In this document: positions 5,505 to 42,425 of the stretch, in pieces | How the letters are laid out: each line of letters opens with the position of its first letter | How positions within the stretch are numbered: the stretch's first letter is position 1 | Source of the DNA: Escherichia coli | Lineage (GTDB): Bacteria > Pseudomonadota > Gammaproteobacteria > Enterobacterales > Enterobacteriaceae | Assembly (NCBI RefSeq): GCF_022846255.1 | Contig: NZ_AP025682.1 | Reading direction: 5' to 3' (one strand) | Length of the DNA stretch: 64,000 bases | Notes under the pieces: generated by a model | What the model saw: only the letters and a program-made list of their open reading frames with translations | Database searches by the model: none | Told to the model about the DNA's origin: nothing | Program-made: the position numbers and the translations under genes

Positions 5505-6758
5505 TTACGCACGAATGGTGTAATCACCAATGCCGATCCACTTGTAAGTGGTCAGTGCTTCCAGCCCCATTGGGCCACGCGCGTGGAGTTTTTGTGTGCT
5601 TACCGCCACTTCCGCACCCAGTCCAAACTGGCCGCCGTCGGTAAACCGCGTAGAGGCGTTAACGTAAACAGCGGACGAATCCACTTCGTTAACAAAACGC
5701 TGGGCGTTGCGCATATCGCGGGTCAGGATCGCATCGGAGTGTTGTGTGCCGTGTTCACGAATATGGGCGATGGCATCGTCAAGATCGCTGACGATTTTGA
5801 CGTTCAAATCTAATGACAGAAACTCATCGTCATACTCTTCCGCTTTAACAGCCACCACCTTCGCGGGGCCTGTCTGCAACTGCGCCAGCGCAGCTGCATC
5901 TGCGTGTAATGTCACGCCGCTTTCCGCCATTTGTTTGCTTAATGCGGGCAGGAAGCTATCGGCGATGTTTTTATTTACCAGCAACGTTTCTACCGTATTA
6001 CATGTGCTCGGACGCTGAGTTTTCGCGTTGACAATTACTTTCAGGGCTTCAGCGATCTCTGCACTTTCATCAACGTAAATATGGCATACGCCTATACCGC
6101 CTGTGATCACCGGGATTGTCGACTGTTCGCGGCACAGCTTATGCAGCCCAGCGCCACCACGCGGGATCAGCATGTCGATGTATTTATCCATACGCAGCAT
6201 TTCACTGACCAGCGCGCGGTCAGGATTATCAATCGCCTGCACGGCACCCGCCGGTAAGCCACAGGATTTCAGGGCGTCCTGAATCACCGCCACCGTTGCA
6301 GCGTTAGTGCGACAGGTTTCTTTGCCGCCGCGCAGGATCACCGCGTTACCCGTTTTCAGGCACAGCGAAGCGACATCAACCGTCACGTTCGGGCGAGCTT
6401 CATAAATCACGCCAATCACCCCCAGCGGCACGCGACGGCGCTCCAGACGCAGACCACTGTCCAGTACGCCGCCATCGATTACCTGCCCCACCGGATCGGC
6501 GAGATTGCACACCTGGCGCACATCGTCGGCAATGCCTTTCAGCCGTGCGGGCGTCAGTGCCAGACGGTCAAGCATCGCTTCGCTAAGGCCATTGGCACGC
6601 GCGTCTGCAACATCCTGCGCGTTAGCGTTGAGGATACTTTCGCTTTGTGCTTCCAGTTCATCGGCGATTTTTTCCAGCACACGATTTTTTTCGCGGCTGG
6701 AGAGTTGCGCTAATTTATACGAGGCTTGCTTCGCGGCAATGCCCATTTGTTCCAGCAT
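5505..6758 (-). CDS. proA: Gamma-glutamyl phosphate reductase, 417 aa
   Basis: Full-length match to ProA ([38 protein letters not shown]...). Confidence 0.97.
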
Positions 6759-6769
6759 CGGCCAGCTCC

Positions 6770-7873
6770 TTAACGGGTAATCATGTCATCACGGTGAACG
6801 GCAACCGGGCCGTATTCATATCCCAGTATTGCATCAATTTCTTGCGAGTGGTGTCCGGCAATACGGCGTAATGCATCGCTGTTGTAACGACTGACGCCGT
6901 GGGCGATATCGCGACCTTCGAGGTTGCAAATACGGATGACTTCACCACGCGAGAAATTGCCAGTCACGCTTTTAATGCCTTTCGGCAACAGGGAGCTGCC
7001 GCGTTCAAGAATGGCGGCAGTTGCCCCTTCATCTACCGTGATTTCACCCGCTGGCGGCGCACCGAAAATCCAGCGTTTACGGTTTTCAAGCGGAGTTGCC
7101 TGGGCATGGAACAGCGTACCCACGGAAATGCCTTCCATCACATCACCAATAACGCCCGGCTTGCTGCCCGCGGCAATAATGGTGTCGATACCCGCACGGC
7201 AAGCCACGTCCGCGGCCTGCAATTTGGTACTCATGCCGCCAGTTCCGAGGCCTGAAACGCTATCACCGGCAATCGCGCGCAGTGCGTCATCAATGCCGTA
7301 CACATCTTTAATCAGTTCTGCCTGCGGATTGCTGCGCGGGTCAGCGGTATACAAACCTTTTTGATCGGTCAGCAGCAACAGTTTATCGGCACCCGCCAGA
7401 ATCGCCGCCAGCGCAGAAAGGTTATCGTTATCACCGACCTTAATCTCTGCCGTAGCGACAGCATCGTTCTCATTAATTACCGGAACGATATTGTTATCGA
7501 GCAACGCACGCAGGGTATCGCGGGCGTTCAGGAAGCGTTCACGATCTTCCATATCAGCACGGGTCAGCAACATCTGCCCGACATGAATGCCGTAAATTGA
7601 AAACAGCTGTTCCCACAGTTGAATCAGTCGACTCTGCCCTACCGCCGCCAGCAATTGTTTCGAGGCGATAGTCGCAGGTAGTTCCGGGTAACCCAGGTGC
7701 TCACGTCCGGCGGCAATCGCGCCCGACGTCACAATAACAATCCGATGCCCGGCGGCATGTAACTGCGCGCACTGGCGAACGAGTTCAACAATATGGGCAC
7801 GGTTCAGGCGGCGCGATCCGCCTGTTAGCACACTGGTGCCGAGTTTTACCACCAGCGTCTGGCTGTCACTCAT
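6770..7873 (-). CDS. proB: Glutamate 5-kinase, 367 aa
   Basis: Start set at [16 protein letters not shown] (ORF track extends 29 codons upstream); immediately upstream of proA. Confidence 0.95.
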
Positions 7874-8061
7874 GATTCTCTGCCATTCAATTTTAGGAAA
7901 AATGATATCAAACGAACGTTTTAGCAGGACTGTCGTCGGTTGCCAACCATCTGCGAGCAAAGCATGGCGTTTTGTTGCGCGGGATCAGCAAGCGTAGCGG
8001 CAGTTGTTTACGCTTTTATTACAGATTTAATAAATTACCACATTTTAAGAATATTATTAAT

Positions 8062-8086
8062 CTGTAATATATCTTTAACAATCTCA
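8062..8086 (+). promoter_or_regulatory. Candidate PhoB-binding Pho box of the phoE promoter
   Basis: CTGTAATATATCTTTAACAATCTCAG, two CTGTAAT/TTTAACA-like half sites about 75-100 nt upstream of the phoE start codon. Confidence 0.45.
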
Positions 8087-8160
8087 GGTTAAAAACTTTC
8101 CTGTTTTCAACGGGACTCTCCCGCTGAATATTCGCGCGTTAATTAAAATCAGGAATGAAA

Positions 8161-9216
8161 ATGAAAAAGAGCACTCTGGCATTAGTGGTGATGGGCATTG
8201 TGGCATCTGCATCCGTACAGGCCGCAGAAATATATAACAAAGACGGTAATAAACTGGATGTCTATGGCAAAGTTAAAGCCATGCATTATATGAGTGATAA
8301 CGACAGTAAAGATGGCGACCAGAGTTATATCCGTTTTGGTTTTAAAGGCGAAACACAAATTAACGATCAACTGACTGGTTATGGTCGTTGGGAAGCAGAG
8401 TTTGCCGGTAATAAAGCGGAGAGTGATACTGCACAGCAAAAAACACGTCTCGCTTTTGCCGGGTTGAAATATAAAGATTTGGGTTCTTTCGATTATGGTC
8501 GTAACCTGGGCGCGCTGTATGACGTGGAAGCCTGGACCGATATGTTCCCGGAATTTGGTGGCGACTCCTCCGCACAGACCGACAACTTTATGACCAAACG
8601 CGCCAGCGGTCTGGCGACGTATCGGAACACCGAATTCTTCGGCGTTATCGATGGCCTGAACTTAACCCTGCAATATCAAGGGAAAAACGAAAACCGCGAC
8701 GTTAAAAAGCAAAACGGCGATGGCTTCGGCACGTCATTGACATATGACTTTGGTGGCAGCGATTTCGCCATCAGTGGAGCCTATACCAACTCTGATCGCA
8801 CCAACGAGCAGAACCTGCAAAGCCGTGGCACAGGCAAGCGTGCAGAAGCATGGGCAACAGGTCTGAAATACGATGCCAATAATATTTATCTGGCAACTTT
8901 CTATTCTGAAACACGCAAAATGACGCCAATAACTGGCGGCTTTGCCAATAAGACACAGAACTTTGAAGCGGTCGCCCAATACCAGTTTGACTTTGGTCTG
9001 CGTCCGTCGCTGGGTTATGTCTTATCGAAAGGGAAAGATATTGAAGGAATCGGTGATGAAGATCTGGTCAATTATATCGATGTTGGTGCTACGTATTATT
9101 TCAACAAAAATATGTCGGCATTTGTTGATTATAAAATAAACCAACTGGATAGCGATAATAAGCTGAACATCAATAATGATGATATTGTCGCGGTTGGCAT
9201 GACCTATCAGTTTTAA
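8161..9216 (+). CDS. phoE: Phosphate-starvation outer membrane porin PhoE, 351 aa
   Basis: Start at [21 protein letters not shown] (signal peptide); C-terminal ...VAVGMTYQF typical of porins. Confidence 0.95.
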
Positions 9217-17556: not shown

Positions 17557-18480
17557 TTAACGCGTTCGCTGCGAAAGCACCTGCTGCTTATCCAGCTTTT
17601 GCACCAGCGGCTGCACCACTTTATCCCCATGCTGACCAAAGTATTGATACAGCGTATCGGACGCGCTTTTAGTCAGCACCATAATCTCAATGCGCCGGTT
17701 GCCCGCGCTTTGCGGATTTTTCGCGTCCAGCAGCATCTGGTCCGCCATTGCGCTCACCTGCATCACTTTATCTTCCGGCATTCCTGCCTCTTCCAGCACC
17801 CGACGAGCCGAAAGCGCGCGGTCACCCGAAAGGTTCCAGTTGTTGTAGATATTGTTTTTGTAGGCCATCGCATCGGTATGCCCGGTAATAATAATTTTGT
17901 TATCGAGCGAGTCGAACACTGGCGCGAGCTCCACCAGCAGCGTTTTAAAGAACGGCATAATCTGCGCGCTGCCGCGTTCGAACATATTGCGATTCTGGTC
18001 GTCTTTAATCAGCACGCGTAATCCCTGCGGGACAATCTCCATCTCCAGATTCGCTTCCATATGCGCATCACGGGCAATGGTGTTGATGCTGGTTGCCAGC
18101 TCACCAAGCTCGGTGGCGGATTTCTTCTTCAGCAGCGCCGTTTTCTCGTTGACGTCGCGCGCTTTTTTCTCCGTCTCTTCCGGCACCGCCACGGTGGCAG
18201 GTTTTGACGGATGAGACGGGCTGATTTTATTTAACGGCGACAGCCCACCACCGTTAAAAATCGACTGCCCGTGCAGCGCGGCGATAATGCTTTCACGCTC
18301 GGATTTACTGACGCTATTGACAATCCACAGCGTCATAAATAGCGCCATCATCGCCAGGGTAAAGTCGGCGAACGCTACCTTCCACGCCCCGCCGTGGTGC
18401 CCGGCATGATTCTTTTTGATCTGCCGCCGGACGATGGTGGTTTTTGCCCCACGCTCGCGGCGGTTGCCCGTCTTTCTCAT
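17557..18480 (-). CDS. lafU: Lateral flagellar motor stator protein LafU (MotB-like, OmpA C-terminal domain); mbhA counterpart
   Basis: Single TM segment (WKVAFADFTLAMMALFMTLWIV) plus OmpA-like peptidoglycan-binding C-terminus; start set at MRKTGNRRE just after the lafT stop. Confidence 0.85.
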   Translation of the reverse strand: MRKTGNRRERGAKTTIVRRQIKKNHAGHHGGAWKVAFADFTLAMMALFMTLWIVNSVSKSERESIIAALHGQSIFNGGGLSPLNKISPSHPSKPATVAVPEETEKKARDVNEKTALLKKKSATELGELATSINTIARDAHMEANLEMEIVPQGLRVLIKDDQNRNMFERGSAQIMPFFKTLLVELAPVFDSLDNKIIITGHTDAMAYKNNIYNNWNLSGDRALSARRVLEEAGMPEDKVMQVSAMADQMLLDAKNPQSAGNRRIEIMVLTKSASDTLYQYFGQHGDKVVQPLVQKLDKQQVLSQRTR

Positions 18481-18482
18481 GC

Positions 18483-19346
18483 TTATTCTTGCTCCAGCAT
18501 CGCATTCACCCATGCATCGAGGTTGGCGAAGGTCGGTTTGGACGCCAGATGCAGCAGCTTACGCCCGGCGTCCACCGCCAGCAGCGTCGGTTTGCCGCCC
18601 GCCTGGGCCACCAGCACGGTACGCACACACTCCAGCAGCGAATGTTCCGCCCGCGCCTGCTGTTCCATGGCGTTGGCGAGCGGGTCCATCAGGCAGTAGC
18701 AAATAAACACGCCTAAAAATGTCCCCACCAGCGCTGCCGCCACTTTCAGGCCAATCAGGGCGATAGAACCGTCAATTGACTGCATGGTGATGATGATGCC
18801 CAGCACTGCCGCGCAAATACCAAATCCCGGCATCGCTTCGGCGGTCCGTTGCAGCGAGCGTGACGGCGTTAACAGCGACTCTTCAGCGGTGTCCAGCTCC
18901 TGATCGAGAATGCCTTCCAGTTCATGGGCGTCGATTTTACCCATCGCCATCAGGCGAAAGTTATCGGCAATAAAAGTCACCAGCCGCTTCTGGGTTAACA
19001 CCAGCGGGTATTTCTGGAAAACGGTACTCTCTTCCGGCTGCTCAATATGCTGATCCAACATCCGCAGACCGCCGTTTTGTACCATTTCAAGCAACTCATA
19101 CAGGCACATTAATAGCTGGCGCTGAAACTCCGGCCCGAGCTGTTTTTTACTGATCACGCCTTTAATTTGATGGGCAATCTCTTTCAGCACATGTTTCGGG
19201 TTCCCAATAATCATCGCCCCGAAACCCGCACCCAAAATAATGATCATTTCCGCCGGTTGCCAGATAGCCACTAATTGGCCGCCCGCTTCAAAATAACCGC
19301 CAAATACGCAGCCGAGCACCACCAGTAAACCTAATATTTTTTGCAT
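18483..19346 (-). CDS. lafT: Lateral flagellar motor stator protein LafT (MotA-like), 287 aa
   Basis: Four-TM MotA/TolQ/ExbB-type sequence immediately upstream of the MotB-like gene. Confidence 0.85.
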   Translation of the reverse strand: MQKILGLLVVLGCVFGGYFEAGGQLVAIWQPAEMIIILGAGFGAMIIGNPKHVLKEIAHQIKGVISKKQLGPEFQRQLLMCLYELLEMVQNGGLRMLDQHIEQPEESTVFQKYPLVLTQKRLVTFIADNFRLMAMGKIDAHELEGILDQELDTAEESLLTPSRSLQRTAEAMPGFGICAAVLGIIITMQSIDGSIALIGLKVAAALVGTFLGVFICYCLMDPLANAMEQQARAEHSLLECVRTVLVAQAGGKPTLLAVDAGRKLLHLASKPTFANLDAWVNAMLEQE

Positions 19347-19358
19347 GATTTCTTCACT

Positions 19359-20078
19359 TTAATTCGGATAGACAAAATCACGAATTTTCTGCGCGATCTG
19401 TTTATTCAGTTGACAAATTCGGGCCTCGGTTAGCCCTAATACCAGCGCAATCTCTTTGAGATTCATCTCATGCTGGTAATACATGGAGAGGATCAGTTGC
19501 TCTTTTTCGCTTAATTGTGAAAGCGCGTGTTGCAGCATTTTCTGCGTGACAAACTGATCTTCCAGGTCTCTGCCAGCAAGCGGAATACCCGGTCCTTCGC
19601 CGTTCAGCAGTTCGTCCAGGCTGGCGAGCGTTTCCGCCCCTTCCAGTTGCTGATATTCGAGATAATCTTCATGCGAGATCCCTTCCTCAGCCAGCTCCTG
19701 CCACTCCGGTTCGTGCCCCAGTTTTTTACGCGTTTCGCGAATCAGGTCTTTCATCTGATGATATTTCTGTCGCAGCTGGCGCGGTCGCCAGTCGAGAGCG
19801 CGCAGCTCATCCAGGATCGCACCGCGAATACGGTGCACGGCATAGCCCGCAAAACCTTCGTCCGGCAGCCCATAGCGACGAATGGCCTTCAACAGCCCCA
19901 TTAACGCCGTTTGTTCCATATCCTGACGGTCAATAATGCAATTACACTGCGGGGCAAGGTGCCGCACCACTTTACGCACCAACGGTAAATAGGCCTGCAA
20001 GTAGTGGCTCTCCTGCTGCGGGGTTAATACCGGCGCGGCAGCAAATTCTTCTGACTCGAATAATACGTCCTGTAGCAT
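19359..20078 (-). CDS. lafS: Lateral flagellar sigma-28 (FliA-family) LafS, 239 aa
   Basis: Sigma-70 family regions 2 and 4 recognisable (e.g. LKEIALVLGLTEARICQLNKQ HTH). Confidence 0.85.
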   Translation of the reverse strand: MLQDVLFESEEFAAAPVLTPQQESHYLQAYLPLVRKVVRHLAPQCNCIIDRQDMEQTALMGLLKAIRRYGLPDEGFAGYAVHRIRGAILDELRALDWRPRQLRQKYHQMKDLIRETRKKLGHEPEWQELAEEGISHEDYLEYQQLEGAETLASLDELLNGEGPGIPLAGRDLEDQFVTQKMLQHALSQLSEKEQLILSMYYQHEMNLKEIALVLGLTEARICQLNKQIAQKIRDFVYPN

Positions 20079-22361: not shown

Positions 22362-23678
22362 TTACGCGAATGCCGCCATGCTGGCTTTCATGGTGTACAC
22401 CTCGACCAGCGTGTTGGTGTACTCCTCGAGATAACGGTCGTAGTTGGCGTTATAGGTATCAGTAAGCTGATCGCCTTCGTCCTGAATTTTGCTCATCTGA
22501 TCGTCAATGTTCTGCTGGCGCAGGGTGATGATGCCGTTGCTGGAGTCCGTGTAGGTGTTAATCAGGTCGTCCATCTGTGCCACCATGCTGTTGTCGCCAA
22601 CGAAAATAGAGGTCAGACCGTCAGGATTTTTCGCCATTTCGTCGTTGAACTGGTCGGAGTCAATCTGTAAGTGGCCGTGAGAATCAAGCGTGATGCCATA
22701 GTCAACAATCGACACCCCGTTGTAGCTGGCATGGGCGATATCATCGAGCTGGTTCGCCAGTGAGCTGAGTCCGGCGTCACCCGCAAATACCCCGGCGCTG
22801 GTACTGTCATCACCGTGGGTGGTCAACGAATCAACCGTATCAATCAAGGTGTTATAAGCATCAACAAAGGTCTGTACTTTCTCCTGGCTGGCGCTGGAAT
22901 CTTCGCTGATGTTAAAGGTAGTGAGATCGCTGTCAGAATCGCTGACTTCGGTGAAAGTCATGGTGACGCCGGGGATCACATCATCAAAGGTATTGCTGCT
23001 ATTAGTGATCTCTGGCCCCGTGGCGCTGCCGAGATGAATAATCGCGTCCTGGGCGGAGGAAACATCCGTAGCAACAGGCGCGCTGGCGCTGTCGTTGCTG
23101 GCGTCATGCCCCGTTACGCTCACCGAAAATGCGCTCTGCGCCCCGGTGCTATCGGAGGTGAGCATAATCGTGGTGGTGCCGTCGGTTTTTACCAGTGCCG
23201 CCGACACGCCCGGATTGTCATCAGAGTCGTTAATCGCATTCACCAGTTCACTGGCGTCGATAAAACCGTCGCCGTCACCGTTCTGATCTGCCGCCGACAG
23301 ATCAATATCCATGGTGCTGTCGCCCATCGTCAGTTCGAAGGTGCCGGTAGCGGAAAAGGCGTCGTCGCCCATACTGAACGTGGTTTGCTGCCCCTGTGCC
23401 AGTTGCTCAACGAAAAATGAGTAGCTTCCCGCCTGCACCTGCGAGTTAGCGGAAACGGTCGCCGAGTCATTATTGCTGGTGGCGGCAAACGTCACCGGGC
23501 CGTCAGTATCGCTGTTCAGCGCGTCAACGGCGCTCTGAAAATCGCTCAACGCTGAGCTGAGCGAGTCCAGGCCGCTGCTTTCAGCATCCAGCTCGCTCTG
23601 CTTCTCCTGCAAATTGGCTGCCTGAGTGGCAACATCCGCATAAGCGATTTCTTGCGCAATGGTTCTTGGGTTGATCAT
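22362..23678 (-). CDS. lafB: Filament cap protein LafB (FliD / HAP2-like), 438 aa
   Basis: FliD-like N- and C-terminal heptad regions; first gene after a sigma54 promoter motif. Confidence 0.8.
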   Translation of the reverse strand: MINPRTIAQEIAYADVATQAANLQEKQSELDAESSGLDSLSSALSDFQSAVDALNSDTDGPVTFAATSNNDSATVSANSQVQAGSYSFFVEQLAQGQQTTFSMGDDAFSATGTFELTMGDSTMDIDLSAADQNGDGDGFIDASELVNAINDSDDNPGVSAALVKTDGTTTIMLTSDSTGAQSAFSVSVTGHDASNDSASAPVATDVSSAQDAIIHLGSATGPEITNSSNTFDDVIPGVTMTFTEVSDSDSDLTTFNISEDSSASQEKVQTFVDAYNTLIDTVDSLTTHGDDSTSAGVFAGDAGLSSLANQLDDIAHASYNGVSIVDYGITLDSHGHLQIDSDQFNDEMAKNPDGLTSIFVGDNSMVAQMDDLINTYTDSSNGIITLRQQNIDDQMSKIQDEGDQLTDTYNANYDRYLEEYTNTLVEVYTMKASMAAFA

Positions 23679-23710
23679 TGATGACTCCGGATAACGATGT
23701 CAGGTTATTG

Positions 23711-23725
23711 GCAAAAGGCGTGCCA
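23711..23725 (-). promoter_or_regulatory. Sigma54 (-24/-12) promoter motif upstream of lafB
   Basis: Minus strand reads TGGCACgccttTTGC, a perfect match to TGGCAC-N5-TTGC; predicted start site about 20 nt upstream of the lafB ATG, which has a GGAG Shine-Dalgarno. Confidence 0.6.
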
Positions 23726-23883: not shown

Positions 23884-24798
23884 TTACTGCAGCAGGCTGG
23901 AAACCATGCTGGACATGCTGTTGGACTGTTTCAGCATGGTGATGCCGGTCTGCATCAGCACCTGCTGTTTAGTCATGTTGGACGCTTCCGTCGCGTAGTC
24001 GGTATCCATAATGTTACCGATAGCGACTTCGGTGTTGTCCTGCATACTGGTCAGGTTATTAGCGGTGTCGTTCAGACGGTTGATAGACGCCCCCAGCTTG
24101 GACTGGATCTGCGAAACATCATCCATCGCGGTAGAAATGCTGGTGATCATCTGGTTAGCCGAGCCAGACGCAGTCAGCTCAGTACCGCCAGAAACGCCTG
24201 CGGTGCCAGTGGTGTCAGCCTGATCCGCACTGAAGGAGTTGCTGATAGCAGAAAGATCCGTCACCAGGGTATTCAGCTGGCTTGAAATATTCACGGTCAT
24301 GGTGTCGGAAGATTCCGCGCCCACCTGGAAAGTTACTGCGCTCTGGAACAGACCGTCAGTACCGGTGTTGCTGGTACCGGAAACACCGAACAGGTTGGTG
24401 CCGCCGTAAGTGGTGTTTTGCAGCATGTCAGACATCTGCTGACCCAGTTCATCGTATTCGTCCTGCATCGCCTGCAGATCGTCGTCGCTGTAGGTGCCGT
24501 TCGCTGCCTGAGTTGACAGGTCTTTCATACGACCCAGCACATCAGACATTTCGTCGAACATGCTGTCAGCGGTTTGCAGCATCGCGGTGGCATCATTGAT
24601 GTTGCTCAGCGCCACACCCATACCGCTGGACTGTGCTGTCAGACGGTTAGCAATTTGTTTGCCTGCGGCGTCATCGGCAGAAGAGTTAATCCGGTTACCC
24701 GTTGCCAGGCGTTCCATAGATGTAGACAGAGAAGAGCTGCTTTTACTGATTGCATTAACGGCGGCCATTGAGGCGTTATTGGTGTTAATAGATAACAT
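23884..24798 (-). CDS. lafA: Lateral flagellin LafA, about 304 aa
   Basis: Conserved flagellin N-terminus (MLSINTNNASMAAVNAISKS...) and C-terminus (...LMQTGITMLKQSNSMSSMVSSLLQ); start at 24798 has an AAGGAG Shine-Dalgarno; short Ser/Thr-rich variable domain. Confidence 0.9.
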   Translation of the reverse strand: MLSINTNNASMAAVNAISKSSSSLSTSMERLATGNRINSSADDAAGKQIANRLTAQSSGMGVALSNINDATAMLQTADSMFDEMSDVLGRMKDLSTQAANGTYSDDDLQAMQDEYDELGQQMSDMLQNTTYGGTNLFGVSGTSNTGTDGLFQSAVTFQVGAESSDTMTVNISSQLNTLVTDLSAISNSFSADQADTTGTAGVSGGTELTASGSANQMITSISTAMDDVSQIQSKLGASINRLNDTANNLTSMQDNTEVAIGNIMDTDYATEASNMTKQQVLMQTGITMLKQSNSMSSMVSSLLQ

Positions 24799-25232: not shown

Positions 25233-26126
25233 ATGCAAAGCACTATCAGGAAACATTTATCCCTTGCTAAGGTAAACTCAACTATGAGTATTATTATCAA
25301 CAACTGGCGGATGGACCCGTCGCTTAATGCCTTAATACATTGCGAAACGGGTGAAACACGTCGTCTCGGCGAATACCATTTTATTTTGCTGGAAACATTA
25401 GCAAAAAATGCCGATGTGGTTTTATCGCGATCTTATTTATGTGCCGAAGTATGGAAGAACCGCATTGTCGGCGGTAACAGCCTGCCGACGGCGATCCACG
25501 CTCTGCGCGTTGCCATTGATGATGACGGCAAGCAACAGAACATTATTAAAACCATCCCGAAAAAAGGGTACCTGTGCAATAAAGAGTATGTGTCTTTGCC
25601 GGAGTCATCGCCTGCAGAAGCGCTGATTATTACCGACCAGATACAAGATACAGCCCCAGAAGAGATATCTTCGACAACACCGCCTGTACCTGTTAGAAAA
25701 AAACATAAAGGACTGATGGGGTTAGCGTTGGCCGCAGCTGTTATATTTATTGGCTCGACCGTGGGGTATTCACACTTGAAAAGTACACCTGACGCCCCGC
25801 AACTGGTAAAAGAGTCAATTAACAGTCCAAGAATAAAAATATTTCATTTAACTTCTGCTGGAGAAAATAATTCCGTACCGTTACTATCACAAACCCTCGC
25901 ACCAGGAAAAGACAAACTCGATAATTTATTGTCAGCGCATAATATGACAATGACAACCTATTATAAATATGTTCGTAACCGACTGGAGAGTGATATTGTT
26001 CTGCGCAACCAGTGCAATGGTAGCTGGCAATTAACCTTTAATGTGGAAGGTTGGCAGAACAGCGATATTAATAGCGCGATGTATCAGAATTTAGAGAAGT
26101 TGTTAAATACTGTGCAGAAATGCTGA
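25233..26126 (+). CDS. lafZ: LafZ, membrane-anchored ToxR/CadC-like winged-helix transcriptional regulator (alternative start at 25284)
   Basis: N-terminal OmpR/PhoB-type winged-helix region (about aa 20-110), single TM (LMGLALAAAVIFIGSTVGY), C-terminal presumably periplasmic domain; divergent from lafA. Confidence 0.65.
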   Translation: MQSTIRKHLSLAKVNSTMSIIINNWRMDPSLNALIHCETGETRRLGEYHFILLETLAKNADVVLSRSYLCAEVWKNRIVGGNSLPTAIHALRVAIDDDGKQQNIIKTIPKKGYLCNKEYVSLPESSPAEALIITDQIQDTAPEEISSTTPPVPVRKKHKGLMGLALAAAVIFIGSTVGYSHLKSTPDAPQLVKESINSPRIKIFHLTSAGENNSVPLLSQTLAPGKDKLDNLLSAHNMTMTTYYKYVRNRLESDIVLRNQCNGSWQLTFNVEGWQNSDINSAMYQNLEKLLNTVQKC

Positions 26127-26184: not shown

Positions 26185-27162
26185 TTACCCCAATAAATTC
26201 CTCACCGTCTGGCTGGAAATTCGCGCCTGACCGTTCACAGCCTGCAATAAAACCTGATAGTTATGATTGGCGCTATCAAGCACACCGCCGAGATTTTCCG
26301 ATGCCTGCACCGCGTTTTCCGTTTGCGGGAAGCGCGACATGCCGTCGATCAGCTGCCGCGCTTTTTCCTGCTGCACCGCCATCTTCGCGCGCTGCTGATT
26401 AATGTTTTCTAACGTCTGAGAAATCCCCGCCCCACCCTGTTGCAGGCTTTGCGCTAAGCGGTCCGCCTGTGACGGTTCGGCAAAGGTTTTTAGCGGCATA
26501 AACGCTGATTTATCACCATCGGTACGCACGCTTAAGGTTCGTTCGATATGGGGCCACTGTTTTTCAGTGGTGGAGAAGCTGATGCCATCGGCGTGTTGAT
26601 GCATCTGAACGCCCACGCGGCGCAGAGCGTTGGTCAGCCGCGTCTGATACTGCGCGGCGCTGTCATCCTCAGACAGCATCACCGCCGAAAGCTGAGTCTG
26701 CCGCCCGTCAGAGACGCTGAACATGCGCGTTCCCGGCGTGGGATTGTGTACCAGATTCGTCAGATCCGGCGAGTGAAAAGTCACCCGCGCTTCCCCCTGC
26801 AACACTGGCTGCAACTGGCGGTCCACCGCGCCGCCGGAAAGCGCGGTGCGTTTGTCCAGCATCTGCATCAGCGCTGAACTCTGCGCCTGCCCGCCCTTAC
26901 GCTGGCTGTGACGGTAATCGAGCAACTGCTGTTCCAGTTGCCCGAGATAGTGATCCGCCTGCTGCAACGTGGTGAGCTGATCGTTAAGCTGCACACTGTA
27001 ACGCTGCGGGCGAGTGGTAATCAGCGGCGAGGCCGGATATTCACTCGCCGTCGCCGGGAGTTTTTGCCGCACCGCCTGAGTGGGCGCAACGGTTGACGAC
27101 GATACCGCAGCGCTATGCGCGCCGCCGGTGGCGAGTGATGAAGATGTAAGTCCGACCTGCAT
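26185..27162 (-). CDS. lafW: LafW, lateral-flagellar-cluster protein of unknown function, 325 aa
   Basis: ORF directly downstream of lfgL; no domain recognisable by eye; name assigned by position in the Flag-2/lateral flagellar gene order. Confidence 0.5.
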   Translation of the reverse strand: MQVGLTSSSLATGGAHSAAVSSSTVAPTQAVRQKLPATASEYPASPLITTRPQRYSVQLNDQLTTLQQADHYLGQLEQQLLDYRHSQRKGGQAQSSALMQMLDKRTALSGGAVDRQLQPVLQGEARVTFHSPDLTNLVHNPTPGTRMFSVSDGRQTQLSAVMLSEDDSAAQYQTRLTNALRRVGVQMHQHADGISFSTTEKQWPHIERTLSVRTDGDKSAFMPLKTFAEPSQADRLAQSLQQGGAGISQTLENINQQRAKMAVQQEKARQLIDGMSRFPQTENAVQASENLGGVLDSANHNYQVLLQAVNGQARISSQTVRNLLG

Positions 27163-29571: not shown

Positions 29572-29705
29572 GCGCGCTGATGCCCTCACCCCGGCCCTCT
29601 CCCACAGGGAGAGGGCGAAAACCTGCGCCATATTCACCTCCGCGCTCAATCGGTCCCCTCGCCCCTTTGGGGAGAGGGTTAGGGTGAGGGGCAAAGCGCG
29701 CCCCT
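29572..29705. repeat. ~130-bp compound palindromic intergenic repeat, copy A (two hairpin units), between lfgK and lfgJ
   Basis: CCCTCACCCCGGCCCTCTCCCacaGGGAGAGGGC ... TCCCCTCGCCCCTTTGGGGAGAGGGTTAGGGTGAGGGG; near-exact reverse complement of copy B at 38862..38993. Confidence 0.6.
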
Positions 29706-36211: not shown

Positions 36212-36228
36212 AGCAATCGCCGTGCCAT
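36212..36228 (-). promoter_or_regulatory. Sigma54 (-24/-12) promoter motif for the lfgB...L operon
   Basis: Minus strand reads TGGCACggcgaTTGCT, a perfect match to TGGCAC-N5-TTGCW, about 25 nt upstream of the lfgB start. Confidence 0.65.
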
Positions 36229-37365: not shown

Positions 37366-37794
37366 GTGAGTATCCGGTTACAACAGGTGAAGGCGTTGTT
37401 GCAGGGCATTCGTGACGACGACGCACTGTACGATTCCCTGCGCGAACTTCTCCAGCGTCAGCGGATCTGCATGATTCGCCGCGCCAGCGAAGATCTGCTG
37501 GCGGTAAACGACGAGATAACGCAGCACTATGAACAGTTGCATGGGCATAGCCATCAGCGGCACAGCCTGCTGAAAATGCTTAATGTCAGTGTAAATCGTG
37601 ACGGTCTGGCGCAGGTTTTTGCCTGGCTTCCGGCTGTGCAAAAAGCAGCAGCACAACAGTTGTGGCAACGCCTTGAGCAAAAAGCGGAACGCTGCAAAGC
37701 CTACAACGACAAAAACGGCGAGCTGTTGATTCGCCAGTATGAATTTATTCAGTCTTTTTTAGGCGGCGAAACAGATTTTCTGTACCAGGAATAA
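37366..37794 (+). CDS. lfgN: Export chaperone LfgN (FlgN-like), 142 aa
   Basis: Helical ORF immediately downstream of the flgM-like gene. Confidence 0.7.
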   Translation: MSIRLQQVKALLQGIRDDDALYDSLRELLQRQRICMIRRASEDLLAVNDEITQHYEQLHGHSHQRHSLLKMLNVSVNRDGLAQVFAWLPAVQKAAAQQLWQRLEQKAERCKAYNDKNGELLIRQYEFIQSFLGGETDFLYQE

Positions 37795-37921
37795 CGACAA
37801 TTCCTTCCGCCATCGCGGAAACGGATTTTCCGCCTGATTCTCAATCCCTTGTTTTTGATTACAAAAATTCCCGGCACGCTTATTGCACATTCCGCAAAGT
37901 AATAAAGACTGGAAGCCACCT

Positions 37922-38851
37922 ATGAGTTTTATTGAATGTTACGAACCGGAATACGTGCGCAATTTTATGACGCAATATCCCGATTCGCCTTTGTACGTCC
38001 GCAAGGTCTGGAAGAATGAGATTCGCCAGAGCCTGGCATTGACCGATATTGAAAGTTGCAAAGCGGTGCTCAACGATGCCAGGGCCTTTGATTTACAGCT
38101 CACCTACCGCCCTGTGGAAGACAATGCCGCCGAGCTATCCGCGCGCGATGCGATAGTAAACCAGGCCATTTTGAGCACCCTTACGCTCCCCGATTTAACC
38201 CCGGAGCTTTCCCTGTATGCCGTCGGGATTTTGCTCTCCCGCGCCAGTAAAATGCCGGGCAGAGACGGAGATATTCTTGCCCGCTTGACGACGCTGCCAC
38301 AGGCGCTGGGGGATCATGCACAAAAAGGCACGCTACAGGCACAGTTCGCCCAACTCCCACCCGTGCCACAACTGGCGCGCCAACTGGTGACGCTGCTCGG
38401 GAGTTTTGCGTTTGACTGGTCGATTTTGCCGGAAAGCCCGCGCAAAGCCTCGCTACCGTTGCAGGTGACTTTGCTGACGTTGCATGACGCCAACAGCGAA
38501 GCTTTGTTGCAACAGCAGCTTAAGGTGCAGTGGCAAACCACCTGGCAACAGCATTTTGCCGCCGCGCCGTGGATGATGCGCAACTGGCTGATTTACCGAG
38601 TTTATCACGACGTGATTGGGCAGGCAGACGGAGCAGATTATTGCCCGCTGGTGTGTGATTTTTATCTCATCCGCACGTTAATCAGTTTATGGACGCTGGA
38701 TGGTTCTGCGCTGCGGCAGGAGGATATTTTCGCCCTCTTTGCCATGTTTGAACGCTGGCGGACCAGTGAAAATGCGCTGTTTATTCGCCAGCAAATTCAG
38801 TCGTTATGTGCCGCAGAGCCGCTGCTGTCAGCGTTTTCGCTGCTGACGTGA
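37922..38851 (+). CDS. Hypothetical protein, about 309 aa, no recognisable domain; first gene of the putative modification module
   Basis: ATG at 37922 with a GGAAG Shine-Dalgarno; same strand as, and upstream of, the multidomain glycosyltransferase. Confidence 0.55.
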   Translation: MSFIECYEPEYVRNFMTQYPDSPLYVRKVWKNEIRQSLALTDIESCKAVLNDARAFDLQLTYRPVEDNAAELSARDAIVNQAILSTLTLPDLTPELSLYAVGILLSRASKMPGRDGDILARLTTLPQALGDHAQKGTLQAQFAQLPPVPQLARQLVTLLGSFAFDWSILPESPRKASLPLQVTLLTLHDANSEALLQQQLKVQWQTTWQQHFAAAPWMMRNWLIYRVYHDVIGQADGADYCPLVCDFYLIRTLISLWTLDGSALRQEDIFALFAMFERWRTSENALFIRQQIQSLCAAEPLLSAFSLLT

Positions 38852-38861
38852 GTCGCTCTGT

Positions 38862-38993
38862 GCGCGCTTTGCCCCTCACCCTAACCCTCTCCCCAAAGGG
38901 GCGAGGGGACCGATCGAGCACGGTGTTAAAATCGGCGCTGGTTTTCTCCCTCTCCCTGTGGGAGGGGGTCGGGGTGAGGGCATCAGCGCGCAC
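38862..38993. repeat. ~130-bp compound palindromic intergenic repeat, copy B, inverted relative to copy A
   Basis: GCCCCTCACCCTAACCCTCTCCCCAAAGGGGCGAGGGGACCGATCG...CTCCCTCTCCCTGTGGGAGGGGGTCGGGGTGAGGG; reverse complement of 29572..29705. Confidence 0.6.
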
Positions 38994-39029
38994 ATTCATC
39001 ACATTCACCCATTAACTCACCCAGACACC

Positions 39030-41474
39030 ATGCCAACACCGACCATCATCAAAACACTCGCCACCCACCGCGAAAAACCGTTCGTCAGCGTCGTCACGCC
39101 AACCTGGAACCGCGGCGCATTCCTGCCGTACCTGCTTTATATGTACCGCTATCAGGACTACCCGGCAGACCGCCGCGAACTGGTCATCCTCGACGATTCC
39201 CCGCAAAGCCATCAACACATCATCGACCGCCTGACCAATGGCACGCCGGAGTCCTTCAACATCCGCTACATCCATCACCCGGAAAAACTGCCGCTGGGCA
39301 AAAAACGCAACATGCTCAACGAACTGGCGCGCGGCGAATACATCCTCTGCATGGACGATGACGACTACTACCCGGCAGATAAAATCTCTTACACCATCGC
39401 TATGATGCAAAAAAACCGGGCGCTCATCTCCGGTTCCGACCAGATCCCCATCTGGTACAGCCACATCAATCGCATCTTTCAAAGCCGCAGCTTCGGCCCG
39501 CATAACATCCTCAACGGCACCTTTTGCTATCACCGTAACTACCTGAAAAAGCACCGCTACGATGACGATTGCAATTTAGGCGAAGAGAAAAGTTTCACCG
39601 ACAATTTCAGCGCTAACCCGCTACAACTGCCCGGCGAGCGCACGATTTTGTGTATCTCGCACAGCCACAACACCTTTGATAAAGACTTTATCCTCGGGGC
39701 CAGCACGCCTGTAAACGCGGCGCTTACGGATATCGTCAGCGATCCGCTGCTACGCAACGCTTATCTGGGTCTGCATAACGCCACTCATTATCAGGCGATC
39801 CAGCATCAGGCGATCGATCAGATCGTTCTGCTGAATCTGGATAAACGCCCGGATCGCTTACAGCAGATCCGTGAAGAACTGACATTGCTGCATATTCCGC
39901 CTGAGAAGATCACCCGCCTTGCCGCCAGTGAAAATGAAAACGGTCAACGGGGCCGCCAGCAATCACACTTGCAGGCGCTGCATCTGGCGCAACAGCACGG
40001 CTGGCAAAACTATCTGCTGCTGGAAGATGACGCGGTTATTCTCAAACAGGAGAAACATATTCAGGTGCTGAACGCGCTGCTGGCGAGCCTGGCGAAAATT
40101 CCCTGGCAGGTGATGATCCTCGGCGGCGAAATTTCGCAGGGAACGATGCTAAAAAGTTTGCCTGGGCTGGTGCACGCGCGGGACTGCCGCAAAGTGTGCG
40201 CTTATCTGGTGAACAGCCGCTACTACCTGCAGCTGGCGCAGCAGATGAACAACGATGAGCATTCGCTGGAAGGCGGCTGGCAGCCGCTGCTGCGCACCGA
40301 CAAATGGCTGGCCTGTTACCCGAGCCTTTGTTATCAGCGACCGGGCTTTAGTGATATCGAGAAAAAAGCGACTGATAACATTAACCACTACTTCAATAAG
40401 TTACCCGTAGCCACCAAGCCATCTACATTACCTATCGCCGATACCATCGGCTTTTTTATGGAAACCTCATTCCACTACGCGCTCTACCGCCCAATCATCA
40501 CTGCCCTACAGGCGCAAGGACAAAGCTGCACGCTGGTGATCAACGACCGCGTGTTTAAACCGTTTCTGGATGAAATGCTGAATACGTTAAAAAGCATCGA
40601 CGATCCACAGCTCAAAGGAATGCGCTTATCGGAAATGCAGGCACACGGTCAGCGAGTAAAATGCCTGGTCAGCCCCTATCACACGCCTGCGCTCAGTGGC
40701 CTTTCCCCCCTGAACATTCGCGCCATGTACGGCTTAGCCAAAGAAACGTGGAACCACGCCGACTGGAACCGTTTTTATCAGCGCATTTTGTGTTACAGCC
40801 ACTACAGTCAGCGGGCGCTGGCACATTTCGGCAGCGCAAAAGTGGTCGGCAACCCACGCTTCGACGCCTGGCATAACGGCACGTTCGACCGCGCTCTGCC
40901 GGAAAATATCCAACCCGATTCCCGTAAACCTACGGTGCTCTATGCCCCCACGTTTGGCGCATTAAGCTCCCTGCTCCACTGGGCAGAAAAATTGGGGCGT
41001 TTGAGCGGCGATGTGAACCTGATTTGCAAACTGCACCACGGCACCTGCTCGCGCCCGGAAGAAGCCGCATCGCTGGCACTGGCGCGCAGGCATTTAAAAC
41101 AGCGCACCGACTCTGCCCGCCACACGCTGGCGCTACTGGCAAAGGCCGATTACGTGCTCACCGATAACAGCGGGTTTATTTTCGATGCTATCCACGTTGA
41201 TAAACGGGTGATCCTGCTCGACTTTCCGGGCATGACGGAACTGCTCGACGGTGAGAAAAGCTACTCCACGGCAGAGAGCGCCGACCAGCGAATCCGCGAA
41301 ATATTGCCGGTGGCTCATGATGTTGCGGAACTGCGTTACTTATTGTCAGAGGTATTTGACTGGGGGGCGGTTCAGACGCGGCTTACGGAAATTCGCCATC
41401 ACTATTGCGATGCGTTTATGGATGGCAAGGCGGGAGAACGAGCGGCGTTGGTGATTGTGGAGGCGTTGGGGTAA
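39030..41474 (+). CDS. Three-domain glycosyltransferase, about 814 aa: GT2-like + GT25-like + TagB/TagF-like CDP-glycerol glycerophosphotransferase (domain calls by motif)
   Basis: GT-A signatures (VSVVTPTWNRG, VILDDSP, CMDDDDYYPADK); GT25-like block (LLNLDKRPDRLQQI...LLLEDDAVIL); TagF-like block (VLYAPTFG...LTDNSGFIFDAIHVDKRVILL); start codon uncertain (39030 ATG vs 38958 GTG inside the repeat). Confidence 0.75.
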   Translation: MPTPTIIKTLATHREKPFVSVVTPTWNRGAFLPYLLYMYRYQDYPADRRELVILDDSPQSHQHIIDRLTNGTPESFNIRYIHHPEKLPLGKKRNMLNELARGEYILCMDDDDYYPADKISYTIAMMQKNRALISGSDQIPIWYSHINRIFQSRSFGPHNILNGTFCYHRNYLKKHRYDDDCNLGEEKSFTDNFSANPLQLPGERTILCISHSHNTFDKDFILGASTPVNAALTDIVSDPLLRNAYLGLHNATHYQAIQHQAIDQIVLLNLDKRPDRLQQIREELTLLHIPPEKITRLAASENENGQRGRQQSHLQALHLAQQHGWQNYLLLEDDAVILKQEKHIQVLNALLASLAKIPWQVMILGGEISQGTMLKSLPGLVHARDCRKVCAYLVNSRYYLQLAQQMNNDEHSLEGGWQPLLRTDKWLACYPSLCYQRPGFSDIEKKATDNINHYFNKLPVATKPSTLPIADTIGFFMETSFHYALYRPIITALQAQGQSCTLVINDRVFKPFLDEMLNTLKSIDDPQLKGMRLSEMQAHGQRVKCLVSPYHTPALSGLSPLNIRAMYGLAKETWNHADWNRFYQRILCYSHYSQRALAHFGSAKVVGNPRFDAWHNGTFDRALPENIQPDSRKPTVLYAPTFGALSSLLHWAEKLGRLSGDVNLICKLHHGTCSRPEEAASLALARRHLKQRTDSARHTLALLAKADYVLTDNSGFIFDAIHVDKRVILLDFPGMTELLDGEKSYSTAESADQRIREILPVAHDVAELRYLLSEVFDWGAVQTRLTEIRHHYCDAFMDGKAGERAALVIVEALG

Positions 41475-41484
41475 ACCGCGCAAG

Positions 41485-41566
41485 TGCCTGATGCGCTTCG
41501 CTTATCAGGCCTACGGATCGATCACGTCTTGTAGGCAGATAAGGCGTTTACGCCGCATCCGGAAAG
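41485..41566. repeat. Pair of REP elements downstream of the glycosyltransferase gene
   Basis: GCCTGATGCGCTTCGCTTATCAGGCCTAC and GTAGGCAGATAAGGCGTTTACGCCGCATCCGG. Confidence 0.6.
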
Positions 41567-41583
41567 AAACAAACATCTCTGTG

Positions 41584-41988
41584 TTAGTACTTTATATAAT
41601 TCCCCCTAATCACCTCAATGATCCCCGTCGTCGATACCGACGGCGTACGGGGAAAATAGACCACCTCACAGATACACGAGAAATCGTCAAACTTCCCTGC
41701 CCAGTCATCACCCATCACCAAAATATCCGCACTGTACCCCCACAGATATTCCGCTTTCTGCGCCAGCGACTCCTCCAGAAATACGCCATCCACGCACGCC
41801 AGCCCGGCGATGATCGACATGCGGTCATCCTGATGGTAAACCGGTGCTCTGCCCTTTTTGGCGATATTTAAGGCGTCGGACGATACGCCGACCAGCAGCC
41901 GTTCGCCCAGCGTGCGGGCGCGTTGTAAAAGGCGCAGATGACCGACATGAAACACATCGAAGGTGCCGAAGGTGATGACCGTTTTCAT
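41584..41988 (-). CDS. TagD-like cytidylyltransferase (glycerol-3-phosphate cytidylyltransferase family), about 134 aa
   Basis: Nucleotidyltransferase HxGH-type motif (ITFGTFDVFHVGHLRLL) and size matching TagD/TarD-type enzymes; start set at MKTVITFG, 2 nt after the lfiJ stop. Confidence 0.75.
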   Translation of the reverse strand: MKTVITFGTFDVFHVGHLRLLQRARTLGERLLVGVSSDALNIAKKGRAPVYHQDDRMSIIAGLACVDGVFLEESLAQKAEYLWGYSADILVMGDDWAGKFDDFSCICEVVYFPRTPSVSTTGIIEVIRGNYIKY

Positions 41989-41990
41989 GG

Positions 41991-42425
41991 CTACTCCGCT
42001 AATTTGTGCCGTAGCCAGCACTGAACGGCGATATCATCCACCGCTTTTTGCGCTTTCGCCGTGGCACTTTCATGCTGCTCGCGGCGTTTGTCATCCAGCG
42101 TCAGGGCCACCACTTTCTCTTCGCACGCCGCCGCCGTCAGGTTTTTCTGCATTCGCGTAGCCTTGATGTTAGCCAGCGTTTTTTCCTGCTCCTGCCAGGC
42201 GATCACCTTGCGTAAGGTGCCTTTGTAGCCGCTGACGTTTTTCAGCGATTCCACCGACGCCGCCGCGTCCGCAGACGTTTTCTCCACCAGGTAGCCTAAC
42301 GCTTTGATATTGTTGTCATAGCCCGCGCAGATCTGTTTTTGCTTTGCCAGTTCGACGGTTTTGTCTTTGACCGATTTATCCCGCAGGCGCTGCAACTGCG
42401 CCAGAGTGTCGATGATTTGTCGCAT
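41991..42425 (-). CDS. lfiJ: Export chaperone-like LfiJ (FliJ-like), 144 aa
   Basis: Coiled-coil ORF immediately downstream of the fliI-like ATPase. Confidence 0.75.
   Translation of the reverse strand: MRQIIDTLAQLQRLRDKSVKDKTVELAKQKQICAGYDNNIKALGYLVEKTSADAAASVESLKNVSGYKGTLRKVIAWQEQEKTLANIKATRMQKNLTAAACEEKVVALTLDDKRREQHESATAKAQKAVDDIAVQCWLRHKLAE

Follow-up and report, generated by a model that had tools for sequence, protein, structure and literature searches.

The closest tested analogues of the system described here are the Type A flagellin glycans of Clostridioides difficile and the b-type flagellin glycans of Pseudomonas aeruginosa. In C. difficile, the TagF-like enzyme FtaD transfers N-methyl-threonine-phosphate from CDP-N-methyl-threonine onto the O-linked N-acetylglucosamine (O-GlcNAc) of FliC in vitro, and in P. 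aeruginosa the protein PA1091 carries a glycosyltransferase (GT) fused to a TagF-like domain (bioRxiv 10.64898/2026.02.12.704994; PMC10714395). For lateral flagellar (Flag-2) loci, De Maayer, Pillay and Coutinho (2020; BMC Genomics 21:100; PMC6993521) defined a variable region 1 (VR1) between lfiJ and lfgN, and suggested from genome comparisons that the glycan on Flag-2 flagellin consists in part of teichoic-acid-type glycopolymers. Here, VR1 was analyzed in a 64,000-nucleotide stretch of Escherichia coli DNA (the window; RefSeq assembly GCF_022846255.1, contig NZ_AP025682.1), in which the region holds lafV, a gene for an 814-amino-acid (aa) transferase, and tagD. Collectively, domain content, genomic association and analogy with the tested systems suggest, with a probability of roughly 0.6, that these genes direct the cytoplasmic post-translational modification of the lateral flagellin LafA with a sugar carrying glycerol-phosphate.

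The three open reading frames (ORFs) lie at 37922-38851 (plus strand; lafV), 39030-41474 (plus strand; transferase gene) and 41584-41988 (minus strand; tagD). The left border is lfgN (37366-37794, plus strand), encoding a FlgN-like chaperone whose E. coli orthologue is named 'flagellar protein FlgN' by the NCBI Prokaryotic Genome Annotation Pipeline (PGAP) and whose orthologues match Pfam FlgN. The right border is lfiJ (41991-42425, minus strand), whose product matches the FliJ model TIGR02473 at 55.5 bits, above its cut-off. An earlier reading of the DNA letters alone (the sequence-only reading) had placed three genes between a flgN-like gene and fliJ, with tagD convergent with the transferase gene. 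This arrangement was confirmed, and every motif it had quoted was found, namely MDDDD (residues 108-112), NLDKRPDR (269-276), LEDDAV (331-336) and YAPTFG (638-643) in the 814-aa protein and FGTFDVFHVGH in the 134-aa TagD protein.

These genes are the known VR1 of the E. coli Flag-2 locus, and the novelty implied by the sequence-only reading was lost, since both the genes and the idea of a teichoic-acid-like glycan were already in the 2020 study (PMC6993521). The VR1 catalogue of that study lists LafV in 342 of 592 loci, a GT2-1 protein of 828 aa in 222 strains from 8 genera and a TagD of 133 aa in 235 strains, with TagB1-8 counted separately in 65 strains. The region and its genes (LafV, GT2-1, TagD) are thus identical to those described here. 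Because GT2-1 was annotated with pfam00535 only and TagB-type proteins were counted separately, the glycerophosphotransferase fused within GT2-1 was not noted there; neither were its GT25-like domain and the absence of an iron-sulfur motif from LafV. The additions made here are incremental: the TagB partner that TagD seemed to lack is part of the GT2-1 polypeptide, and the presence of tagD tracks the integrity of the TagF motifs. In addition, a core pair of two-domain glycosyltransferase and FliB_C protein is the constant unit to which cassettes are added, and LafV is probably not a lysine methylase. On sequence evidence, then, the original observation is real and its interpretation appears largely sound and plausible, having already been published as a bioinformatic hypothesis; its argument for acquisition as a cassette was wrong.

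The 814-aa protein was resolved into three domains by Pfam, profile and fold comparisons. Domain 1 (residues ~17-235; 39078-39734, plus strand) is an unambiguous GT2-type GT-A domain by its match to PF00535 over residues 20-134 (E = 1.1e-17). It carries the motifs LDDS (54-57) and DDDD (109-112), with D55, D56 and D109-D111 invariant in 21 homologues, and profile searches of the PDB matched it to PglI and TarS (TarS at E = 6.5e-9). Domain 2 (residues ~260-460; 39807-40409, plus strand) is a GT25-like GT-A domain that includes NLDKRPDR and the acidic motif EDD (332-334). Across the same 21 homologues, E332, D333 and D334 are invariant, N269, D271, R273, D275 and R276 are invariant or nearly so, and the GT25 family PF01755 was detected at E ≤ 0.001 in two proteins (best 5.4e-6). 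A stand-alone 223-aa protein from the VR1 of Leminorella, itself with a weak PF01755 match, shares 33% identity with this middle domain (E = 4e-38). The best Foldseek match of the AlphaFold2 model of the 814-aa protein was a GT25 enzyme, human ColGalT1 (E = 5.7e-13). The model is confident from residue 260 onward and poor in the GT2 domain, with a predicted local distance difference test (pLDDT) score below 50 for residues 103-137 and 155-206; the tandem GT-A likeness to ColGalT1 therefore rests mainly on the GT25-like domain.

Domain 3 (residues ~468-814; 40431-41471, plus strand) is a TagF-like phosphotransferase domain with the motifs GNPRFD (607-612), YAPTFG, KLHHG (667-671) and TDNSGFIFD (711-719). 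The Pfam family Glyphos_transf (PF04464) was detected at E ≤ 0.001 in 7 of the 21 homologues (best 5e-8). A direct phmmer search of the PDB with the C-terminal 350 aa returned no match at E ≤ 10; a profile of the domain built with two stand-alone relatives matched the capsule polymerase Cps3D (1.1e-11), TarL (3.1e-9) and TagF (1.8e-7). By Foldseek, the model matched TagF (3l7j) at 3.1e-9, with a template-modeling (TM) score of 0.57 by target, as well as TarL and Bcs3. The histidine of KLHHG aligns with H584 of TagF, where the corresponding segments read MHY in TagF, KMHP in TarL and GHH in Cps3D. One homologue is named 'bifunctional glycosyltransferase family 2 protein/CDP-glycerol:glycerophosphate glycerophosphotransferase' by NCBI.

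The product of tagD is a 134-aa CTP:glycerol-3-phosphate cytidylyltransferase-like protein by NCBIfam, Pfam and PDB comparison. Pfam CTP_transf_like matched it at E = 5e-17, and TIGR01518 was its best-scoring family by a wide margin. Residues 1-129 aligned end to end with residues 1-128 of Bacillus subtilis TagD (1coz) at E = 7.7e-32, and Staphylococcus aureus TarD (2b7l) matched at 8.5e-27, whereas ethanolamine- and choline-phosphate cytidylyltransferases reached only 1e-17 to 1e-6. The protein contains HVGH (14-17), GDDW and RTPSVSTT (114-121), and the HxGH and RTxGISTT-type motifs are conserved in 34 Flag-2 TagD sequences. The earlier assignment as a TagD-like cytidylyltransferase was upheld by the full-length match to 1coz (E = 8e-32). 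The ATG of tagD lies 2 nucleotides after the fliJ stop on the minus strand, so that tagD is the last cistron of the fliE-J operon. Other genera retain the adjacency of tagD and fliJ, even where the transferase gene and tagD are separated by 3-5 kb of additional genes. In Escherichia sp. E1V33 (locus L019, 12559-14556), two copies of tagD were observed, a frameshifted one in two overlapping fragments beside the transferase gene and an intact one beside fliJ.

Sixty-seven loci from one genome per species, together with loci from protein look-ups, were collected (numbered with the prefix L), and all of their ORFs were scanned with hidden Markov models from our own alignments. The census was restricted to the 63 loci, from different species, in which both the FlgN and FliJ borders were present. 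Both tagD and a TagF-like domain were found in 31 of the 63 loci, neither in 20, a TagF-like domain without tagD in 12, and tagD without a TagF-like domain in none. The association was significant by Fisher's exact test (p = 2e-8, uncorrected for phylogeny), and it was seen again across several arrangements of the genes. In Escherichia, Pseudocitrobacter, Citrobacter, Enterobacter and Pseudescherichia, the loci with tagD encode a fused TagF-like domain with intact YAPT[FY]G, KLHH and TD[NS]SGF motifs. In Erwinia, Rahnella, Cedecea, Buttiauxella, C. sedlakii and some Enterobacter, they encode a separate TagF-like protein of 354-457 aa. The unfused version of the E. coli arrangement is seen in Paramixta, where the order is GT (478 aa), FliB_C, TagD and TagF-like protein (414 aa), a Rosetta-stone relationship.

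The 12 loci with a TagF-like domain and no tagD comprised five with degenerate fused proteins, three with Fta-like cassettes, three with other large TagF-containing proteins and one metagenome-assembled genome (MAG) with intact motifs. In the five fused proteins (L010, L012, L013, L029 and L037), the TagF motifs have degenerated, for example to YAPSLD, LLHND and SDDDAR in Leminorella, to YAPKLD, VMQHG and GDNRAL in Atlantibacter and to YVPAAG, TLPPA and TDRCEV in an Enterobacter. The Fta-like cassettes of three loci consist of a methyltransferase-TagF fusion with HAD and IspD-like proteins. In two further loci (L003 and L024), the C-terminal domain is replaced by a KpsS/KpsC-like domain and tagD is absent. 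The decay of the TagF motifs where tagD has been lost argues for selection where both are kept. The pairing of a cytidylyltransferase with a glycerophosphotransferase that the sequence-only reading had recognized was thus strengthened, since tagD never occurs without a TagF-like domain (31:0). The census is the strongest evidence obtainable without experiments that TagD would feed the TagF-like domain. Across these genomes, the two-domain glycosyltransferase and the FliB_C protein are the constant unit, to which TagD/TagF-like, Fta-like or KpsS-like cassettes are added.

Further variations on this layout were observed. In Citrobacter youngae (L021, 12576-15965), a 698-aa GT9 heptosyltransferase-like protein and a 418-aa protein with a weak methyltransferase match are encoded between the fused transferase gene and tagD; this insert points to a more complex glycan built on the same chassis. 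In a Plesiomonas sp. MAG (L006, 6001-13618), a homologue with all three domains fused (841 aa, 38% identity) was found beside motB, outside a VR1 context. In place of tagD, its neighborhood encodes an NTP_transferase, a glutamine amidotransferase and a phosphoenolpyruvate-utilizing (PPDK-like) enzyme of 1,011 aa, an arrangement that may indicate a different activated donor. One enterobacterial Flag-2 VR1 came from a contig labeled Chryseobacterium sp. 18061 (L031; CACSKA010000002.1), with a layout almost identical to that of Citrobacter sp. 18056 (L030) from the same study; the assembly is probably mislabeled or contaminated, rather than the result of a transfer to Bacteroidota. Within the VR1 of a Lelliottia sp. 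(L009, 9594-11010), an AbiEi/AbiEii toxin-antitoxin (abortive infection) pair was present.

The presumed acceptor is the lateral flagellin LafA, encoded at 23884-24798 (minus strand; NF033376, 667 bits). It had been described as next to the module; lafA is in the same locus, 13 kb away. The central region of LafA (residues 130-230) is 34% serine plus threonine and contains no lysine. All six lysines of the protein (19, 47, 92, 234, 277 and 290) lie in the conserved terminal regions, with none between residues 93 and 233.

Under the preferred interpretation, one or both GT-A domains (GT2 and GT25-like) would place one or two sugars on serine or threonine residues of this exposed central region in the cytoplasm, before export. 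TagD would convert CTP and glycerol-3-phosphate to CDP-glycerol, and the TagF-like domain would then move glycerol-phosphate (+154 Da) from CDP-glycerol to the flagellin-bound sugar through a phosphodiester. This last step would resemble the post-glycosylation modification that has been demonstrated biochemically for FtaD of C. difficile. LafV, in which the FliB iron-sulfur motif is missing, would less likely be a lysine methylase than a partner of the transferase, with an accessory role or one in the recognition of flagellin.

A sigma-54-type promoter-like site, CGGCAC-N5-TTGCA (37872-37887, plus strand), lies 35 nucleotides upstream of the lafV ATG. It was recognized by its match to the consensus alone, and conservation of the site was seen at the E. 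coli loci L001 and L002. Similar sites lie directly upstream of lfgB (36212-36227, minus strand; perfect consensus) and of the fliD-like gene (23710-23725, minus strand; one mismatch). Six such sites were observed in the window against 3.6 expected, a number not above chance; their positions alone are suggestive. The lafV site fits LafK-dependent expression, in line with what is known of lateral flagellar regulation. In the proposed scheme, lafV and the transferase gene would be transcribed from the sigma-54-type promoter and tagD as the terminal cistron of the fliE-J operon; all three genes would therefore be switched on with the early flagellar genes.

Several observations weigh against this interpretation, and some of them favor the alternatives considered below; the latter include the score of TagD below its equivalog cut-off, its KKGR segment and the disruption of the transferase gene in some E. 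coli strains. Within the 814-aa protein itself, Pfam found no GT25 match (PF01755) even at E ≤ 10, and PF04464 reached only E = 0.0053 (16.2 bits, residues 605-728), below significance. The profile searches that the sequence-only reading had proposed as a check, taken literally, thus half fail: Glycos_transf_2 and CTP_transf_like were recovered, but Glyco_transf_25 and Glyphos_transf were not. Its claim of three transferase domains held directly for GT2 and, through relatives, profile searches of the PDB and fold, for the other two. The GT25-like and TagF-like domains are nevertheless judged to be real on this combination of profile and model evidence. An equivalent of the catalytic His444 of TagF was not mapped, as the alignment is ambiguous there (the aligned region reads SPYHTP, against LWHG in a stand-alone relative). 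The candidates are H550, which is not conserved, and H576 in WNHADWN, which is conserved in at least 90%. The MAG among the loci without tagD (L035) encodes a fused protein with intact TagF motifs and no tagD in its VR1. No report of a Flag-2 flagellin glycan, nor of glycerol-phosphate on flagellin, was found in the literature searched. In capsule polymerases, moreover, TagF-like domains can transfer hexose-phosphate instead of glycerol-phosphate (PMC5974469).

A polymerizing mode is the main mechanistic rival to a single cap. Alternating transfer of sugar and glycerol-phosphate would yield a teichoic-acid-like poly(glycosyl-glycerol-phosphate) on flagellin or another primer. Cps1B, Cps12B and CslB likewise join GT-A and TagF-like domains in a single polypeptide (PMC5974469), and the 'glycopolymers' proposed by De Maayer et al. 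(PMC6993521) are in keeping with such a product. So are the best PDB match of the C-terminal profile, which is a capsule polymerase, and the resemblance of the GT2 domain to TarS, an enzyme that glycosylates polyol-phosphate. However, no tetratricopeptide repeat (TPR)-like segment was found in the 814-aa protein by AlphaFold2 model or Pfam, and the neighboring genes are flagellar rather than kps; no oligomerization domain and no kps-type export genes accompany it. A product on unfolded flagellin would have to pass the narrow flagellar export channel, which would favor short glycans, and FtaD, the only characterized flagellar TagF-like enzyme, adds a single unit. Polymerization is thus considered unlikely. 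The same low weight is given to a broader version, in which LafV acts as a recognition subunit and the three-domain enzyme builds a teichoic-acid-like glycosyl-glycerol-phosphate oligomer or polymer on LafA, with the core pair as a universal chassis for interchangeable TagD/TagF-like, Fta-like and KpsS-like cassettes.

Alternatively, the module and Flag-2 as a whole may be an unexpressed or functionless relic in E. coli, with no modification made. Flag-2 is reported to be cryptic in some strains, such as E. coli 042. Among 5,426 complete E. coli genomes, only 1,269 have the VR1 region at a coverage of at least 80%, and its annotation is routine. An internal stop makes the transferase gene a pseudogene in E. 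coli LCP17S3_I1 (L001, 4730-7174), and in E. coli strain A25 the transferase match is interrupted by an IS4-like element, ISEc13; the module is therefore decaying in some E. coli lineages. In the window, however, all three module ORFs and every flagellar ORF inspected are intact, the catalytic motifs are invariant across genera, and the guanine-plus-cytosine content at third codon positions (GC3) is in the range of the neighboring flagellar genes. A silent relic is accordingly regarded as improbable.

A donor other than CDP-glycerol is a weaker alternative still, in which the TagD-like enzyme would activate some other phospho-alcohol or sugar-phosphate for transfer by the TagF-like domain. TagD scored 112.7 bits against TIGR01518 (cd02171), below the equivalog cut-off of 165.4. 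Its residues 44-47 read KKGR, against KQKK in TagD proper, so that K44 is kept and position 46 is a glycine flanked by K45 and R47; we take Lys44 and Lys46 of TagD to bind glycerol-phosphate (structure 1N1D). This KK-x-R signature is conserved in all 34 of the Flag-2 TagD sequences extracted, and is therefore a mark of the clade and not of decay. Related VR1 cassettes with IspD-like enzymes, HAD proteins and methyltransferases (Fta-like CDP-amino-acid chemistry), and the promiscuity of TagF-like domains in the group transferred, also point toward other donors. Against this stand the end-to-end alignments to B. subtilis and S. aureus TagD (E = 1e-32 and 1e-27), far beyond those to ethanolamine- and choline-phosphate cytidylyltransferases, the conserved HxGH, GDDW and RTxxxSTT motifs, and an E. 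coli module without accessory genes for an unusual phospho-donor. CDP-glycerol thus remains the predicted donor of the preferred interpretation.

Equally doubtful is the view that LafV is a genuine flagellin lysine-N-methylase whose action does not depend on the glycosylation genes. The sequence-only reading had left the 309-aa protein as unknown; it is in fact a LafV of the FliB_C family, with only the C-terminal domain of FliB (PF27117) by NCBIfam, Pfam and homologue comparison. The name 'lysine-N-methylase' is given to it by PGAP and used by De Maayer et al., and there is a weak homology to FliB (NF038110; E = 1.6e-9), at 37.8 bits below the cut-off of 85 and over profile positions 106-363 of 373 only. 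Its 94 homologues are all of about 310 aa (309-315) and contain PF27117 alone. Like Salmonella FliB, to whose C-terminal two-thirds it is homologous, LafV is encoded in a flagellar locus. It differs in having no N-terminal CX4CX3CC iron-sulfur motif, its five cysteines (6, 46, 241, 245 and 296) being unclustered, and in a presumed substrate without an exposed lysine. In FliB, this [4Fe-4S] motif is essential for methyl transfer, and the conserved terminal flagellin regions are not modified (PMC8598068). A structure search with the AlphaFold2 model of LafV (pLDDT 92) returned no solved structural relative and no methyltransferase fold.

The name is therefore doubtful for a PF27117-only protein that corresponds to the C-terminal part of FliB and has neither the CX4CX3CC motif nor a detectable methyltransferase fold. 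The methylase role is further in doubt because all lysines of LafA lie in terminal regions of the kind that FliB leaves unmodified. In 71 of 75 loci, including the Fla2 locus of Burkholderia oklahomensis, a FliB_C gene adjoins the core two-domain glycosyltransferase gene, which suggests that LafV and the transferase work together. LafV is thus probably not a lysine methylase, the annotation of PF27117-only proteins as 'lysine-N-methylase' is probably wrong, and this family may instead be a glycosyltransferase partner.

The proposal that the module was acquired as a repeat-flanked cassette was rejected, since the repeats are internal to the module, recur elsewhere in Flag-2 and in the genome and are missing from other strains, and the module shows no break in base composition. 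The sequence-only reading was correct that both repeats exist; rather than bracketing the module, they lie between its first and second and its second and third genes, and they are dispersed E. coli elements. The first, a compound inverted repeat resembling the boxC dispersed intergenic element (38859-38994), lies between lafV and the transferase gene and has 35-nucleotide arms (38859-38893 and 38960-38994) that are 80% complementary. Matches to the element at 38860-38993 occur in more than 5,000 E. coli genomes, with a median of five sites per genome, and a boxC-like core also occurs at 29594. The second, recognized by sequence, is a repetitive extragenic palindromic (REP) pair, or bacterial interspersed mosaic element (BIME), between the convergent transferase gene and tagD (41485-41566). 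Four REP cores were found in the window (23848, 32688, 41538 and 48589), all in Flag-2 intergenic regions. A search for structured RNA in 38848-39005 returned only a sub-threshold plant microRNA model (27.5 bits against a gathering threshold of 90), a chance hairpin match.

E. coli sequence type 131 (L002) has no compound repeat between lafV and the transferase gene. Three small unannotated ORFs (133, 182 and 115 aa; no NCBIfam match) were observed in the same genome (O25b:H4; 6022-8431) instead of the REP pair. The GC content of the module is 0.548, against 0.55-0.56 in the rest of Flag-2 and 0.50 in the chromosomal flanks. The island is Flag-2 as a whole and not the VR1 module.

The Flag-2 locus of the window is complete-looking and adjoins dinB, the chromosomal flank being pepD-proBA-dinB, which shares 98.2-98.5% identity with E. 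coli chromosomes. Flag-2 is missing from E. coli K-12. It includes lafU (17557-18513), a motA-like gene (18483-19346), a gene for a sigma-28-type factor (19359-20078) and fliD (22362-23678). Past lafA, the gene order runs from lfgL to lfgB, then lfgA, lfgM and lfgN, and on to fliJ, fliI, fliH, fliG and fliF. Between lafA and an ORF at 26185-27162 lies an ORF for a 297-aa protein (25233-26126, plus strand) with weak CadC/OmpR-type winged-helix matches only (E = 1e-8); it occupies the position given in the literature for the second Flag-2 variable region (VR2).

If the preferred interpretation is correct, the lateral flagella of E. coli and of many Citrobacter and Enterobacter strains bear an anionic glycan capped with glycerol-phosphate, a chemistry shown for no flagellin in the literature searched. 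Swarming, surface adhesion, recognition by phages and antibodies, and innate immune sensing could all be affected. The logic established in C. difficile, in which a CDP-activated phospho-group is passed to a flagellin sugar by a TagF-like enzyme, would be extended to a second donor. Should the LafV-guided oligomer or polymer prove correct instead, LafA would become the first flagellin to bear glycerol-phosphate, and the large FliB_C family, at present mis-annotated, would gain a new role other than that of a methylase. A practical limit is that Flag-2 expression in E. coli is hard to obtain.

Compared with known systems, the transferase shares with human ColGalT1 (GLT25D1) a tandem GT-A arrangement, this protein O-glycosyltransferase being its best structural match, albeit with a weak sequence match. 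The second domain of ColGalT1 is the GT25 catalytic domain and its first GT-A domain is non-catalytic, whereas both GT-A domains of the E. coli protein keep acidic DxD-type motifs. Identity is 10-12%, and the poorly modeled N-terminal domain keeps the TM-score low. Maf/nonulosonic-acid glycosylation of lateral flagellins in Aeromonas and Plesiomonas modifies serine or threonine residues of the central domain, the predicted targets here as well, but its chemistry is entirely different. The Flag-2 ORFs of the window that were examined include no Maf homologue and no genes for pseudaminic or legionaminic acid synthesis, in agreement with the sequence-only reading, which had set the module apart from such systems.

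The TagF-like group 2 capsule polymerases (Cps1B, Cps3D, Cps7D, CslB and Bcs3) are also Gram-negative multi-domain proteins that combine a GT-A or GT-B domain with a TagF-like domain. They differ in having TPRs, in lying in kps capsule loci and in making long polymers, and some use UDP-hexose as a hexose-phosphate donor (PMC5974469). With TagD and TagF of Gram-positive wall teichoic acid synthesis (TarD/TarF/TarL), the module shares full-length homology of TagD, the GxPRxD, YAPT(W/F), (K/R)xH and TDxSxxxFD motifs and a GT-B-like fold. Unlike that pathway, VR1 lacks a membrane-association domain, the machinery for a lipid-linked acceptor and any TagA/TagB/TagO or TagGH genes; it lies in a Gram-negative flagellar operon, and a glycoprotein is its presumed acceptor.

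The C. difficile Type A (CD0240 and FtaABCD) and P. aeruginosa b-type (PA1088-PA1091 and FgtA) systems combine a flagellin O-glycosyltransferase, a TagF-like phosphotransferase and a donor-making cytidylyl- or nucleotidyltransferase, and all three activities are predicted for the E. coli module. Their donor is CDP-N-methyl-threonine, made by FtaA (HAD), FtaB (IspD-like/NTP_transferase-type) and FtaC (methyltransferase). None of these is encoded in the E. coli module, which has a TagD-type enzyme instead, for which CDP-glycerol is the predicted product. Additional features of the E. coli protein are its GT25-like GT-A domain and its FliB_C partner. Beside the same core glycosyltransferase, Fta-like cassettes are present at other loci of the Flag-2 and Burkholderia Fla2 types (L004, L005, L049 and L064), and the fusion of a glycosyltransferase to a TagF-like domain is common to PA1091 and the 814-aa protein.

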